DNA of 64,000 bases from sequence record MT446421.1, one strand, 5' to 3'. Below the pieces are notes generated by a model. It was not told the origin of the DNA and did not search any database. It worked only from the letters and a program-made list of their open reading frames with translations. Below are positions 3,497 through 30,072 of the stretch, piece after piece. Origin of the DNA: Escherichia virus TH55. Every line of letters begins with the position of its first letter. The first letter of the stretch is position 1. Made by a program: the position numbers and the translations under genes.

Positions 3497-3704
3497 AATA
3501 AACCCTTACCATTATTAGATAAGGGTATTTATTAAATCTTATAAAACGCGCGGTGTAACCGTTTAAATTGACGAATCATCTTTTTAGTAGGACGAGTATA
3601 CAATCCTACACAGGTGGCCATAAACTGGTCGGTAGGACTTCCTTTAATAAGAAGTTTCCAGACCTTGACACCATTTAACTTTTCGGTATAGACTAATGCA
3701 GTTT

Positions 3705-4007
3705 TCATGCGACCTCAAATTCATTATCATCGTTAGTCCAAAAACACCAGAATGAAGCTTTAGTATCTTCAAACATTTCTTTAGTGTATTCGTATACCTT
3801 ACCATTGAATTCGATAGCAGTTACGCCAATGATTTCAGGATTGCCCCATGGAGAAATCTCCACCTTCAAGATTTTAACTTCAGCACCTTCACAGAGCTCG
3901 CCTGACTCAAAACCGCGATTGCCGTTTAATTCAGGCCAGTCAACATAATGGTCAACATCTTCTTCAGTAATACGAACAGTTTTACCTTCAAATTCAAATA
4001 AATTCAT
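3705..4007 (-). CDS. hypothetical protein (100 aa)
   Basis: Minus-strand ORF in 49-nrdC interval (region of pin/49.x small genes in T4); no motif recognised. Confidence 0.5.
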   Translation of the reverse strand: MNLFEFEGKTVRITEEDVDHYVDWPELNGNRGFESGELCEGAEVKILKVEISPWGNPEIIGVTAIEFNGKVYEYTKEMFEDTKASFWCFWTNDDNEFEVA

Positions 4008-13308: not shown

Positions 13309-13545
13309 TCACCAGTATTTTTTGATAGTAGAAATTAATTCTTGGACTTGAGTGGTCTTCAGCTTACACCCACAACCTTTTAAGGTGTCTTTAAGGAGCC
13401 ATGGCTCTTTGAGCTCATCCTTTTCCAGGCGAATTCTATATCCGCGGTAATCAGCAAATATGCTTCCGTCATCAAATATCTTAATTTCAAGAATATGATT
13501 ATTGGTTTCATATTCCAATGAAACCATGGTATTTGTAAGTTTCAT
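13309..13545 (-). CDS. hypothetical protein (78 aa)
   Basis: Short ORF with stop/start overlap with neighbour. Confidence 0.4.
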   Translation of the reverse strand: MKLTNTMVSLEYETNNHILEIKIFDDGSIFADYRGYRIRLEKDELKEPWLLKDTLKGCGCKLKTTQVQELISTIKKYW

Positions 13546-13848: not shown

Positions 13849-14232
13849 TTACTCTAGTGTTAACAGATACTTAGTCTGAAAGAAAACTCCAACGATATCG
13901 TCCAGAGTCGATTGAATAGCCTTAGGTACAACTTTATAGACTCTTTCCGAGCTTTTAATCATTTCATCTAAAAACAAAATTGTATCTTTCGGCAAGTCCG
14001 AGGCGGACGGTAATGCAGCTTTGTATTGTTTCCCGCTGTAACCTAACCATTGCTCACTGAACTGGTCGAGTGGACCTTGGATTTCTGTGAAGTAGAAATC
14101 ATAAGCTTTATGGCGGGCGTAACTTTTGGTTTCAAGATGGGCGGATTTAAAATAAGCCAAAGAGACTAACAACCACCCAATATATGAATCCACCTCAGAC
14201 CCACGACCCGTTACGAAATCATCAAATTTCAT
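13849..14232 (-). CDS. hypothetical protein (127 aa; position of T4 rI.-1)
   Basis: ORF directly downstream of rI, followed by UUCG-hairpin terminator. Confidence 0.5.
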   Translation of the reverse strand: MKFDDFVTGRGSEVDSYIGWLLVSLAYFKSAHLETKSYARHKAYDFYFTEIQGPLDQFSEQWLGYSGKQYKAALPSASDLPKDTILFLDEMIKSSERVYKVVPKAIQSTLDDIVGVFFQTKYLLTLE

Positions 14233-14515
14233 CTTCCAATTTTACCTTCATTAATTTAGCGTATTCGACTGCAGCAGCACGGCCATCAATTTGACATGTG
14301 ATTTCATTTACACATTGACTCTTATTGTTCCATTCAGTTTTAATAAAAGCCCAAAATTGTTCGGACTGCTCGACGCTGGGTTCTTTGAATTGCGAATAGA
14401 TTTGCATCGCACTATCTGCATACTGGGTAAATTTACCATCTGTCGCAGAGGACATATTTGGGCCTAAACAGCCCATTAGTAATAGACTTAGAGAAAGTCC
14501 TCGAATAAGGTCCAT
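14222..14515 (-). CDS. rI: lysis inhibition regulator rI (membrane-anchored antiholin)
   Basis: From M17, 97 aa (same as T4 RI); signal-anchor then SVEQSEQFWAFIKT / AKLMKVKLEDE matching remembered T4 RI; minus-strand TATAAATA at 14587-14594. Confidence 0.7.
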   Translation of the reverse strand: MDLIRGLSLSLLLMGCLGPNMSSATDGKFTQYADSAMQIYSQFKEPSVEQSEQFWAFIKTEWNNKSQCVNEITCQIDGRAAAVEYAKLMKVKLEDEI

Positions 14516-14586: not shown

Positions 14587-14594
14587 TATTTATA
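14587..14594 (-). promoter_or_regulatory. late promoter TATAAATA (rI)
   Basis: Exact T4 late consensus on minus strand between rI and upstream gene. Confidence 0.5.
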
Positions 14595-14865
14595 ATCTTT
14601 TAAATTTGAAACAATACATTGCAAATAAATCAGAAAAATGTCTATCAACCCATATTCTTTGCACTGGACTAGTCACAGTCAGCATATAATGTGATTTTTG
14701 TAAATTTATTCCATTTTTATTCGGGCATTCTTTATTAACAGAATGGTACGTGCTTGCTACTATTTCAATTTCCCTTTCATATCTCTCGCTATCTGTTTGT
14801 GTGGGAATAAATGCAATTCCAGCAATAACAAAAATAGAGATATACGTCCAAACCTTGTATACCAT
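14590..14865 (-). CDS. hypothetical membrane-anchored protein (91 aa)
   Basis: N-terminal hydrophobic segment; between tk and rI. Confidence 0.45.
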   Translation of the reverse strand: MVYKVWTYISIFVIAGIAFIPTQTDSERYEREIEIVASTYHSVNKECPNKNGINLQKSHYMLTVTSPVQRIWVDRHFSDLFAMYCFKFKRL

Positions 14866-14872
14866 GCGAACC

Positions 14873-15445
14873 TCAGCTTGTTAATTCGAGCCAGTGTTTT
14901 CTGCATAAAGATACGTACGATTCATTCCCACCGACTAACACTTGCTCGCCGTCCTTTACAGCAGCACCGTCGATTACTCTCGCGGTCATGGTTGCTTTCC
15001 GGCCGCAATGACAGACGCCCTTTAATTCAACCAGTTTATCCGAAATAGCCAGAAGTCTGGCTGAACCGGGAAATAATTGACCCCGAAAATCTGTTCTTAA
15101 CCCGTAACACATAACGGGGATATTGTAATTATCAACCACTTGAGCTAACTGGTCAATTTGCTCTGGTAACAAAAATTGAGCTTCATCGACCAGGACACAA
15201 TGGATATCCTTTTGAGACTCGGCCCATTTATAGAATTCAAACAGGTTCATGTCGGCCGTTACCAGGTTTGCTTCCTGGCTAATACCAATACGTGATTTAA
15301 TTTCAGATTCCGAGTCCCGATTATCAATAACAGGTTTTAGCAAAAGCACACTCATTCCACGCTCTTTATAGGAATAAGCTGCAGTCAGCAATGAAGCTGT
15401 TTTGCCTGCATTCATTGCTGCGTAATGATAAATTAAACTCGCCAT
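14873..15445 (-). CDS. tk: thymidine kinase
   Basis: 190 aa; P-loop NAGKTASL, C-terminal zinc Cys pairs (CHCG...CRKHW); T4 order rI-tk. Confidence 0.92.
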   Translation of the reverse strand: MASLIYHYAAMNAGKTASLLTAAYSYKERGMSVLLLKPVIDNRDSESEIKSRIGISQEANLVTADMNLFEFYKWAESQKDIHCVLVDEAQFLLPEQIDQLAQVVDNYNIPVMCYGLRTDFRGQLFPGSARLLAISDKLVELKGVCHCGRKATMTARVIDGAAVKDGEQVLVGGNESYVSLCRKHWLELTS

Positions 15446-15843: not shown

Positions 15844-16016
15844 AATTCAATTCCATCCATAACCAAAATTCTTTTTCGTTGGGTCTTGAGAGCTTCGTTA
15901 GCCCGGTCATAATCTTCTTGACTACCGCTAGGCTGTAAAGCCGCTACCTTTTTGGCCAAGTGAATAAGCTTATCCAAGTTTTCAACAATACGTTCTTGTT
16001 CTTCATTCAGGCTCAT
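15840..16016 (-). CDS. hypothetical small protein (58 aa, below ORF-track cutoff)
   Basis: Hand-translated MSLNEEQERIVENLDKLIH...; stop overlaps next start (TTATGA). Confidence 0.3.
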   Translation of the reverse strand: MSLNEEQERIVENLDKLIHLAKKVAALQPSGSQEDYDRANEALKTQRKRILVMDGIEL

Positions 16017-16467
16017 AATCCACCACTATTAAATCAATATCAGGAGTAAACATGTCGATTAATTTAGAAACCTTTTCCCAATCTCCACCTGCAATACCAC
16101 AACCAATGCGAGGAATGTAAATTACCGGTTTAAACAAAAGGGTTTCTGCTTGTAGATTTAATTCTATCATACAATTTACTAAAGCACCATAATCAAGATT
16201 AGGGCCCGGTTCATATTGAGTGTACAAATTATAACACATACCAAACCCAGTAGGTTTATGTTTAAAAACAATAGACATATCGCCTAATTTATCACGAGAA
16301 CCATATTCAGTGGTGGTTTTATCTATTTCTAAAACTTTTGGATAGGCCTTCGCCAACTGTCCAGCTACACCAGAACCCATTGTGTGGAAGCAGTTACAAC
16401 CATGAGCAATAATATTGCCTTGAAGAAAGAGGGCGACGATATCGCCCTTAATATACTGGGTAATCAT
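16003..16467 (-). CDS. macro-domain protein (ADP-ribose binding / hydrolase fold)
   Basis: 154 aa; N-terminal GDIV...AHGCNC...MGSGVAGQL and C-terminal IPRIGCGIAGGDW match macro-domain motifs. Confidence 0.6.
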   Translation of the reverse strand: MITQYIKGDIVALFLQGNIIAHGCNCFHTMGSGVAGQLAKAYPKVLEIDKTTTEYGSRDKLGDMSIVFKHKPTGFGMCYNLYTQYEPGPNLDYGALVNCMIELNLQAETLLFKPVIYIPRIGCGIAGGDWEKVSKLIDMFTPDIDLIVVDYEPE

Positions 16468-16823
16468 TTAGAGTTCAATCCTCTATTATATGAATCCACT
16501 AACCTGTCAACCATACTGGTGCAGGCCGCCTTATATTTTGCACTTGAAAGAATGCAATCCATTTCAAATAATTTCTTTTCATATTTGTTGGATAATACAT
16601 TCTTTTTCAAAAGTGTATGTTCAACATCATTTTGGCCATCTTTATATGCCGCGGTGAGCTTGGCGCTGAACTGGATTACACAATCCACATTGCTTGGTGC
16701 GCAATAATCTTTAGCCGTCCTCGTTGCATATTCTATGATGCTGTTGTTGTCATCGCTCTGTACTGAAGCTATTCCTCCCATGCTGAATACTAACCCTATG
16801 GCTAAAGTGATAACTCTTACCAT
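16464..16823 (-). CDS. secreted/periplasmic protein (119 aa)
   Basis: N-terminal signal-peptide-like segment (MVRVITLAIGLVFSMGGIASVQS); four Cys. Confidence 0.5.
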   Translation of the reverse strand: MVRVITLAIGLVFSMGGIASVQSDDNNSIIEYATRTAKDYCAPSNVDCVIQFSAKLTAAYKDGQNDVEHTLLKKNVLSNKYEKKLFEMDCILSSAKYKAACTSMVDRLVDSYNRGLNSK

Positions 16824-16825
16824 TT

Positions 16826-17368
16826 TTAATCCACCGTTTTTAATAGGCCTCGTGATTTTAAGTAGTTAGCTTTTTCTAGGACCTGTGAAGCATACGTATT
16901 ACCAGCTTTCACATTCCATCCTGCGTTATATGATGATAGTGTTTTCCTTATATCCCCCTTATGAATATTCAACCAGTATGAAAGCTCAATGTAAGCCCAG
17001 CGTGCACTGTTCTCTCTCTTGCTTATCATTTTGATTATTTCTTTATCTGTCATTGTCCACCCAACCTGTTTCACGCGTTCGCGCACGGTTGGAAGATAAT
17101 TTTGGAATATACCATATGCATGATGCTTATCTTTATTTAATCCAGTATTAATCCCAGCAGAACTCTCCTGCCAGGTTAAACCAGCCATGATATATCCCAA
17201 ACCATTATGTTGGTGCGGATTTTCTTTGTACTTACCATTTTTCTGGAACTGTTCTCCAAACGCATAAGCATATTGGAGGTTTTCCATTTGTTCATTACTG
17301 AAAGTAGGCTCTACGCTATGGGCAGACATACTAACTGTCAATAGTAAGGTGGCGATTACTTTTTTCAT
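16826..17368 (-). CDS. periplasmic lytic transglycosylase-like protein (SLT family)
   Basis: Signal peptide (MKKVIATLLLTVSMSAHS); SLT motifs WQESSAG...AYGIFQ...SYNAGW. Confidence 0.6.
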   Translation of the reverse strand: MKKVIATLLLTVSMSAHSVEPTFSNEQMENLQYAYAFGEQFQKNGKYKENPHQHNGLGYIMAGLTWQESSAGINTGLNKDKHHAYGIFQNYLPTVRERVKQVGWTMTDKEIIKMISKRENSARWAYIELSYWLNIHKGDIRKTLSSYNAGWNVKAGNTYASQVLEKANYLKSRGLLKTVD

Positions 17369-17378
17369 GAATTCCCCA

Positions 17379-17837
17379 TTAGATATAAATCACTTTTGTG
17401 CTAATTTTTCCTTCCAGACGATTAGAGTTAACAAACGCCATACGACAACACATGGTCGGAGACTTCCCAGGAATAGCGGGGTTAACTGTCATTCCTAACC
17501 ATAGGTTCTTGTCCGTGATTTCCAGACGAAGTGGACGGTAGTTCACATTCGGGTCAATTTGTGCTTCAACTTCCGGGAGTGGTTTCATCTCCAAGAATTC
17601 AACGATTTCTTTTACATGTGGTGTGATTTTTCCAAACAAGTCAAAAACATATTGTTCATCAATTTCACGCTGGATTGCACGGTCCAACAGGTGTGGACTG
17701 TACTTAATGAAGAATGCCTCAAGGCCTGCTTCTTTACAAGCCTTGTTGATAGCATTATTAATTTTGAGGAACTCCGTTTCAAAAATGCGACGAAGTTTAT
17801 TGCGGCGAATGTAAACACTTGAATCGATAGTAGTCAT
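17379..17837 (-). CDS. regB: endoribonuclease RegB (cleaves GGAG in early mRNAs)
   Basis: From M20 (MTTIDSS), about 152 aa; close match to remembered T4 RegB (VYIRRNKLRR...LLDRAIQREIDE...RPLRLEITDKNLWLG); promoter lies inside the longer ORF-track frame. Confidence 0.88.
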   Translation of the reverse strand: MTTIDSSVYIRRNKLRRIFETEFLKINNAINKACKEAGLEAFFIKYSPHLLDRAIQREIDEQYVFDLFGKITPHVKEIVEFLEMKPLPEVEAQIDPNVNYRPLRLEITDKNLWLGMTVNPAIPGKSPTMCCRMAFVNSNRLEGKISTKVIYI

Positions 17838-17864
17838 GATTATCTCCTTTTGTTTGATGGGATA

Positions 17865-17893
17865 ATCATAACTCATTTCAATCTGCTTGTACA
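17865..17893 (-). promoter_or_regulatory. T4-type early promoter (regB)
   Basis: Minus strand: -35 TGTACA, 17 nt, -10 TATGAT; 28 nt upstream of regB ATG. Confidence 0.55.
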
Positions 17894-29517: not shown

Positions 29518-30072
29518 TTAGTTCTTATAAAAGCGGAACGGATTTATATGAAAGGCGAGCATAGCCTTAGGGATTGGTCGGGACAGAAGGCTCTTGAGCT
29601 TCCAACCACAATAAACGCGCAGATAAAAGGTGATTCCACCGACCTTGAGATAAGGAACAGAAGCAAAAACACCCCAGGCATTATCCGTCCACATCCAGAG
29701 CCATCCGTGATGAGCTTTATCCGGGGAACCGGATTCAACATCAGGATTGCCTTTATAATGGAATTCTGAATTGCAATCACGACCGAGCTTGTGGTAAGCA
29801 AAATTGTATGCTTTGTTTCGCCAGAGCCAAGCTACTCGTTGGAAGTAAACACCTAACGGCCATTTTCGGATTTTTGACCAACGTTTGACATGACCCCGGT
29901 CACCATCAATCGGATTATCATAAGTCATCATCCAATCAAACCCGAACGGAAGTTTACCAGTCTTTTTATTATAGAATGGAACTACAAATGGAGCCAGGAT
30001 AACGGCCAGAATCATGGAGATAAAATCCAGTGGAACTAACAGAATCCAACTCAAATATTTTAACAGTTTCAT
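29518..30072 (-). CDS. membrane-anchored protein (about 184 aa)
   Basis: Start at M27 (MKLLKYLSWILLVPL...) because a terminator lies at 30095-30124 inside the longer ORF-track frame; N-terminal TM; Trp-rich. Confidence 0.5.
   Translation of the reverse strand: MKLLKYLSWILLVPLDFISMILAVILAPFVVPFYNKKTGKLPFGFDWMMTYDNPIDGDRGHVKRWSKIRKWPLGVYFQRVAWLWRNKAYNFAYHKLGRDCNSEFHYKGNPDVESGSPDKAHHGWLWMWTDNAWGVFASVPYLKVGGITFYLRVYCGWKLKSLLSRPIPKAMLAFHINPFRFYKN

Follow-up and report, generated by a model that had tools for sequence, protein, structure and literature searches.

The closest described counterparts of the two genes considered here are vs.1 and vs of bacteriophage T4. A marginal similarity of vs.1 to SLT-type lytic transglycosylases was published by Nolan et al. 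in 2006 for all six T4-like orthologues then known (PMC1524935), and an earlier report of this similarity for T4 vs.1 is cited in the same article. The vs product was described by Muller & Marchin (1975, 1977, as quoted in PMC8076793) as a protein that binds the host valyl-tRNA synthetase (ValRS), a property that is also quoted in the HIDEN-SEQ preprint. A third T4 protein of relevance is Spackle (gp61.3), a periplasmic helical disulfide protein that loses its signal peptide by cleavage and blocks the tail lysozyme gp5 in a 1:1 ratio (PMC7650644). The corresponding vs.1 and vs genes of Escherichia virus TH55 were analyzed in a stretch of 64,000 nucleotides (MT446421.1), the whole of which is referred to as the window. 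Judged by their sequences, both open reading frames (ORFs) are orthologues of T4 vs.1 and vs and represent a gene pair that is known and annotated in T4-type phages. As a whole, we consider it probable that they belong to the prereplicative gene block and that they encode an exported lytic transglycosylase, Vs.1, and an exported four-helix disulfide protein, Vs. The features of the two genes are the following:

16826-17368, minus strand: vs.1 orthologue, 180-aa precursor with ATG start (ORF and similarity to T4 Vs.1)
16464-16823, minus strand: vs orthologue, 119-aa precursor with ATG start (ORF and similarity to T4 Vs)
17315-17368, minus strand: predicted Sec signal peptide of Vs.1, residues 1-18, MKKVIATLLLTVSMSAHS (conserved layout)
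16764-16823, minus strand: predicted Sec signal peptide of Vs, residues 1-19/20, MVRVITLAIGLVFSMGGIA then S (conserved layout)
17165-17167, minus strand: codon of Vs.1 Glu68, the predicted catalytic acid/base (invariance and alignment to Slt70)

The 2.5 kb tested are 100% identical to the sequence of Escherichia phage UPEC07, a T4-like phage (Straboviridae, Tevenvirinae, Gaprivervirus) in whose GenBank record the vs.1 orthologue is labelled 'SLT domain-containing protein' and the vs orthologue 'valyl-tRNA synthetase modifier'. The SLT resemblance of Vs.1 is already known, both in print since 2006 and in the GenBank annotation. The deduced proteins share 66% (Vs.1) and 46% (Vs) identity with their T4 orthologues; the 180-aa protein matched phrog_600 at 2e-67 and the 119-aa protein phrog_1256, 'valyl tRNA synthetase modifier', at E=8.5e-33. 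T4 Vs.1 (20.7 kDa, PHROG 600) agrees with the present protein in length, signal-peptide layout, motifs and place between regB and vs, and differs from it in nothing of substance. T4 Vs (PF26829, PHROG 1256) has the same four cysteines, an identical C-terminal helix SMVDRLVDSYNRGL and the same place between vs.1 and tk.4; it differs in that a ValRS-binding function is described for the T4 protein, with which the predicted export of the present Vs conflicts. Matches by tblastn were obtained in 2072 phage records for Vs.1 and in 795 for Vs, and both ORFs can therefore be regarded as real genes. A first-pass annotation of this DNA, made from the sequence alone, had reported two adjacent genes for exported proteins, the smaller one being a cysteine-containing protein that was not recognised as Vs. 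Both ORFs were found at the coordinates given above, separated by 2 nt, and the 119-aa protein contains four cysteines at positions 41, 48, 90 and 101; it is not an anonymous protein, being the orthologue of T4 Vs.

Vs.1 as a candidate lytic transglycosylase

The assignment of SLT motifs to the 180-aa protein in the first-pass annotation was borne out, since all quoted motifs are present (W66-Q-E68-S-S-A-G, G86-I-F-Q89 and S146-Y-N-A-G-W151), Pfam SLT matches extend across the family and the predicted fold agrees. In an alignment of 31 Vs.1 homologues with identities down to 42%, the residues W66, E68, S69, S70, G86, Q89, N90, Y147, N148, G150 and Y159 are invariant. The signatures E-S, G-x-x-Q and Y-N-x-G of family-1 transglycosylases are all present in Vs.1 and in the right order: motif I, a glutamate followed by a serine, corresponds to E68-S69 and is kept in 31 of the 31 homologues, and it is followed by G86-I-F-Q89 as the counterpart of motif II (G-L-M-Q) and by S146-Y147-N148-A-G150 as that of motif III (A-Y-N-x-G). 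The Pfam SLT profile (PF01464) was matched by all 31 family members at E<=0.1, the best value being 1.3e-7, and a precomputed PF01464 match exists for several homologues. An hhalign alignment to the catalytic domain of E. coli Slt70 placed WQESSAG...YGIFQN on RQESAWN...SGLMQI, whereby E68 of Vs.1 is paired with the glutamate of the Slt70 sequence RQES, which is residue 55 of the fragment and residue 505 of the precursor. In the numbering of mature Slt70, the latter is the catalytic residue Glu478. The predicted fold of Vs.1 is lysozyme-like and alpha-helical with an active-site cleft; in the AlphaFold2 model the protein is small and consists of a single domain, its N-terminal helix plus hairpin (residues 24-57) being peculiar to the family.

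Several results weigh against this assignment. The present Vs.1 itself scored 14.4 bits (E 0.029) with the Pfam SLT profile, the gathering cutoff of which is 21.3, the alignment with Slt70 is weak (E 0.085), and no lytic transglycosylase was found among the PDB chains in sequence searches with Vs.1, its homologue P0074 and the family profile. As no solved lytic transglycosylase was found by sequence and the Slt70 alignment is weak, the assignment rests on the motifs and the predicted fold. An alternative is that Vs.1 is not an active transglycosylase, being either a glycan or peptidoglycan binder with a kept fold or a hydrolytic muramidase resembling g-type lysozyme. The invariance of Glu-Ser, G-x-x-Q and Y-N-x-G across the family would be unexpected for a non-catalytic binder, and the E-S dyad without a conserved second acidic residue nearby is the pattern of family-1 lytic transglycosylases; both forms of this alternative are accordingly judged unlikely. 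The sequence of Vs.1 is accounted for best by an exported accessory lytic transglycosylase of family 1 (glycoside hydrolase family 23, GH23).

The known cellular enzymes of this type are distant from the phage protein. Slt70, MltC and MltE of E. coli and Slt, MltF and MltD of P. aeruginosa share 13-17% identity with Vs.1, which moreover lacks accessory domains (superhelical U/L domains, LysM or ABC-like module) and a lipid anchor. The closest architecture is that of EtgA from the type III system of enteropathogenic E. coli, as both are small, signal-peptide-bearing specialised transglycosylases. Other specialised small lytic transglycosylases of trans-envelope machines are IpgF, IagB, VirB1 and P19. 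Vs.1 differs from the EtgA-type enzymes of such machines in that it is phage-encoded, is not known to be targeted by any machine or partner and, as its timing is inferred, is made before replication. According to the proposed mechanism, Vs.1 would be made as a precursor, exported by the Sec system and cleaved after about residue 18 to yield a small soluble single-domain periplasmic GH23 enzyme. Glu68 would protonate the glycosidic bond between N-acetylmuramic acid (MurNAc) and N-acetylglucosamine and then aid the attack of the C6 hydroxyl group, leaving 1,6-anhydroMurNAc ends. The protein would thereby act in accessory nicking or remodelling of the host sacculus during infection and not as a lysis enzyme.

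Homologues of Vs.1 with a signal peptide and the same motifs are encoded in phage FelixO1, directly after rIIA/rIIB, and in Det7 of the Ackermannviridae, and the Vs.1 family can therefore be regarded as a widespread accessory gene of myoviruses. Vs.1 is found without Vs in FelixO1-like phages, Ackermannviridae and T4-like phages of Aeromonas. In such Aeromonas phages without vs, a similar slot is filled by a non-homologous, predicted exported protein; in Aeromonas phage 25 (L005, positions 3531-3971) this is a 146-aa ORF with the lipoprotein-like signal MKKSIAAILALSIYGC, located between vs.1 and tk.4.

Export signals and the compartment of Vs

Export of Vs.1 and Vs is a prediction based on a heuristic that calls for a basic n-region, an uncharged hydrophobic h-region of 8-15 residues and small residues at positions -3 and -1. 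Both N-termini show this layout, MKKVIATLLLTVSMSAHS being followed by VEP in Vs.1, with predicted cleavage after AHS, and MVRVITLAIGLVFSMGGIA being followed by S in Vs. When the crude rule was applied across the window, 4 of the 102 non-overlapping ORFs with a length of 60 aa or more passed, and vs.1 and vs are two of them, lying next to each other. Within the Vs.1 family, the n/h/c layout is kept in all 31 homologues though the sequence drifts, and the signal segment forms a separate helix in the model, with a predicted local distance difference test score (pLDDT) of 67-69, that is not packed against the domain. Likewise, all full-length Vs proteins have an N-terminus with the layout of an export signal, and residues 1-23 of Vs are disordered or of low confidence in the AlphaFold2 model. 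T4 Vs starts with MTKILVLCIGLISFSASASA followed by D, which constitutes a textbook cleavage site between ASA and D. In the distant Vs homologue P0121, a lipobox with the cut between LSG and C replaces the signal peptidase I site, a swap that would be pointless unless export is the property under selection. Signal peptides on both proteins, as proposed in the first-pass annotation, are thus in line with the heuristic and with a layout conserved across both families.

The other two ORFs that passed the crude rule are located at 14590-14865 (minus strand, 91 aa, MVYKVWTYISIFVIAGIAFIP), between tk and rI, and at 29518-30072 (minus strand, 184 aa, MKLLKYLSWILLVPLDFISMILA). The RI homologue at 14222-14515 (minus strand) has the N-terminus MDLIRGLSLSLLLMGC with a lipobox-like L-M-G-C, and its sequence suggests that RI may be lipid-anchored in this genus. 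The signal of T4 RI is cleavable or of the signal-arrest-release type.

The family of Vs is very small and is recognized by PF26829 (ValRS_modifier), for which precomputed matches exist on Vs homologues. The Pfam copy scanned here is without this entry, and Vs itself gave only a sub-threshold match to DUF6520 in it; NCBIfam yielded nothing meaningful for Vs.1 or Vs. The AlphaFold2 model of Vs (pLDDT 77.5) contains helices at residues 24-40, 46-69, 74-90 and 95-116, with Cys41 and Cys48 flanking loop 1 and Cys90 and Cys101 flanking loop 3. In the extended family, with identities down to 22%, the residues that are invariant besides Met1 are the four cysteines and G63, D106, L108, G115 and L116; the distant members, from Krischvirus and two metagenomic contigs, show 22-28% identity. 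The spacing within the cysteine pairs varies (C-x5-7-C and C-x9-10-C) and each pair brackets a helix-helix loop, which fits two disulfides that staple the hairpins. An exhaustive profile search for distant Vs proteins among 1.84 billion representatives gave 8 matches at E<=0.001, namely six Vs proteins or fragments from T4-like phages, the 77-aa fragment P0119 and the 3694-aa protein P0118 with 17 matched stretches; no bacterial or otherwise informative context was found in this search. According to the tblastn matches, Vs is confined to phages of Enterobacterales. The sequence and the structural model are accounted for best if Vs is an exported four-helix protein with disulfide bonds. Two local disulfides, Cys41-Cys48 and Cys90-Cys101, would probably staple it.

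In the GenBank record of UPEC07, the name 'valyl-tRNA synthetase modifier' is also given to a second ORF of 78 aa (13309-13545, minus strand), which is without signal peptide and Vs motifs and which is not similar to the Vs profile (hhalign probability 0.1%). This second label looks like an error of annotation transfer. Implausible names were also given to other neighbours in that record, such as 'endoribonuclease' for the small ORFs at the vs.3 and rI.1 positions and 'molybdopterin-guanine dinucleotide biosynthesis protein MobD'.

The predicted export of Vs is at odds with a cytoplasmic ValRS target, and it has to be weighed against the textbook view that Vs is the cytoplasmic 'tau' peptide that binds ValRS, that its N-terminus serves export inefficiently or not at all and that its cysteines bind metal. 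The classical literature reportedly describes the T4 vs product as purified in a complex with ValRS, and genetic interactions in vivo between mutations in vs and alleles of the host gene valS; both points argue for a cytoplasmic pool of Vs and thus speak against export. The same applies to the arrangement of the cysteines, which flank loops 1 and 3 at the same end of the up-down bundle and could form a Zn(Cys)4 site if the protein were cytoplasmic, although spacings of 5-7 and 9-10 residues are unlike those of the usual zinc knuckles. The textbook view is further favoured by the annotation and the biochemistry quoted above from PMC8076793, by the specific impairment of vs mutants in minimal medium, in which the supply of amino acids and their charging are limiting, by the restriction to phages of Enterobacterales and by the invariant C-terminal helix CxSMVDRLVDSYNRGL, which would suit a highly conserved host target. 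It is more difficult to reconcile with the N-in signal and the -3/-1 site that occur in all full-length homologues despite sequence drift, with the lipobox of one family member and with the lack of a conserved internal start that would give a leaderless form, T4 Vs being without methionine between residues 1 and 100. The calculated mass of T4 Vs is 13.1 kDa for the precursor and 11.0 kDa if cleaved. The purified ValRS-binding factor tau, with a mass of about 10 kDa, is nearer to the cleaved form, and cleavage implies export. Additionally, N-terminally His-tagged full-length T4 Vs was found to be insoluble in the E. coli cytoplasm (PMC8076793). Taken together, the textbook view has to be taken seriously but appears doubtful, and the cytoplasmic function of Vs needs re-examination. 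A more far-reaching proposal is that Vs, instead of or in addition to being a cytoplasmic ValRS modifier, is a Sec-exported, disulfide-stapled periplasmic envelope protein that possibly acts with Vs.1, and that the ValRS label, now 50 years old, stems from an association after cell breakage or from the assignment of the genetic vs locus to the wrong ORF; in this complete form it is put forward tentatively and as rather unlikely.

Relation of Vs to Vs.1 and to superinfection exclusion

In a recent transposon screen of T4 in lysogeny broth (LB), insertions were recovered at 46 of the 52 TA sites of vs.1 and at 30 of the 32 TA sites of vs, and both genes are non-essential (bioRxiv 10.1101/2025.11.20.689424, supplement). 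The insertion reads of vs (26.6) and vs.1 (22.6) were approximately 10-fold lower than those of the neighbours vs.3 (652) and tk.4 (290). In the comparison of M9 with LB, vs showed a log2 fold change of -2.19 (adjusted p 0), making it the strongest minimal-medium-specific fitness gene of T4 in this screen, and vs.1 showed one of -0.87 (p 0.0055, adjusted p 0.155) (all bioRxiv 10.1101/2025.11.20.689424). Insertions in regB, upstream of both genes, rose in the LB-vs-M9 comparison with a log2 fold change of +1.17 (p 0.049) that was not significant after correction (same preprint, Extended Data Table 6, sheet S8), and downstream of it the insertions in vs.1 and vs fell in M9 relative to LB.

These data bear on the question of whether Vs is a periplasmic partner of Vs.1 that regulates it as an inhibitor or activator, by analogy with the action of Spackle on gp5. 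Both proteins are predicted to be periplasmic, the T4 mutants are alike in their low abundance and in the direction in which they change in M9, and vs is always located directly downstream of vs.1, even at about 25% identity of Vs; the genes are 2 nt apart here and overlap by 1-8 nt in T4 and two metagenomic contigs. Moreover, Spackle provides a precedent as a small prereplicative T4 protein that is periplasmic and helical, contains disulfides and modulates a phage muralytic enzyme (PMC7650644), so that it can serve as a functional template for an exported Vs. A partnership would nevertheless have to accommodate the occurrence of Vs.1 without Vs in many phages (2072 versus 795 records), and Vs shows neither sequence nor fold similarity to Spackle. 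Closely joined genes are the rule in this block. The low counts of vs.1 insertions, moreover, could be a polar effect on vs. A version in which Vs neutralises a harmful Vs.1 predicts neutral vs.1 insertions, yet these are under-represented. For these reasons a regulatory partnership of the two proteins is regarded as improbable. Start/stop coupling was also considered as a sign of a functional vs.1-vs pair and was rejected, as the junctions of vs with tk.4 and of regB with vs.1 are equally tight. A relationship of Vs to Spackle (Sp) by descent was likewise rejected (hhalign probability 1.2%).

The first-pass annotation had further suggested that the pair might act against superinfecting phages, and a role in superinfection exclusion or in resistance to lysis from without was therefore weighed as well. 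The T4 proteins of superinfection exclusion are Imm and Sp. The pair resembles them in location and timing only, as prereplicative proteins directed to the periplasm (PMC7650644). Neither Vs.1 nor Vs matched any PADLOC family at E<=1, no similarity to Spackle was detected, and no link of either gene to exclusion was found in the literature on vs and vs.1. In addition, an enzyme that cuts the wall should help rather than hinder the penetration of a superinfecting phage, and the Vs.1 family is kept in unrelated groups of myoviruses beside different genes. The suggestion thus found no support, and a function of this kind is considered very improbable.

Genomic context, timing and significance

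The gene pair is embedded in the following neighbourhood:

17379-17876, minus strand: regB, site-specific endoribonuclease, upstream neighbour (Pfam REGB_T4, E=3.2e-72; GenBank annotation)
16003-16467, minus strand: tk.4 orthologue, macro-domain protein, downstream neighbour (Pfam Macro, E=5.6e-8)
14873-15445: thymidine kinase (tk), beyond the tk.4 orthologue and three small ORFs

The resulting gene order regB - vs.1 - vs - tk.4 - tk.3/2/1 - tk is that of T4, and the synteny regB - vs.1 - vs - tk.4 is also present in Krischvirus and in two metagenomic T4-like contigs. With respect to the identity to T4, vs is the most diverged gene of the regB-tk block. According to the junction sequence, its stop codon overlaps the ATG of tk.4 as ATGA. 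T4 tk.4 was reported as AdfM, an anti-DarTG2 factor (bioRxiv 10.1101/2025.11.20.689424).

The two genes had been called early in the first-pass annotation. This timing agrees with the synteny to the prereplicative regB-tk block of T4, with the uniform minus-strand orientation and with the lack of a late motif. The promoter scans performed no better than those of shuffled sequences, and no promoter could be assigned to vs.1 or vs. Strict MotA-box and early-promoter patterns were not found between 14 and 24 kb, and the late-promoter motif TATAAATA is absent from the minus strand between 14594 and 30576. Early expression of vs.1 and vs is plausible from these sequence features, and both genes would be transcribed with the prereplicative block from regB to tk. 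In the whole window, TATAAATA occurs with 14 exact matches versus 5.7 expected; on the plus strand, 8 of the 9 matches are located at 47.9-62.2 kb, presumably in a late-gene block, and one match on the minus strand (14587-14594) is located a short distance upstream of the rI homologue.

As a genome feature, the vs.1/vs pair is routine, being annotated in the present phage and in hundreds of T4 relatives. T4 is usually credited with two lysozymes, e and gp5 (PMC7650644). Vs.1 would be a third protein with a muralytic fold; it is predicted to be exported, and its family is conserved in FelixO1-like phages, Straboviridae and Ackermannviridae. The question of what Vs does is an old one. Under the far-reaching proposal made above, the defect that T4 vs mutants show in minimal medium would be an envelope phenotype and not a translation phenotype. 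If Vs is indeed periplasmic, experiments on tRNA charging would aim at the wrong compartment.

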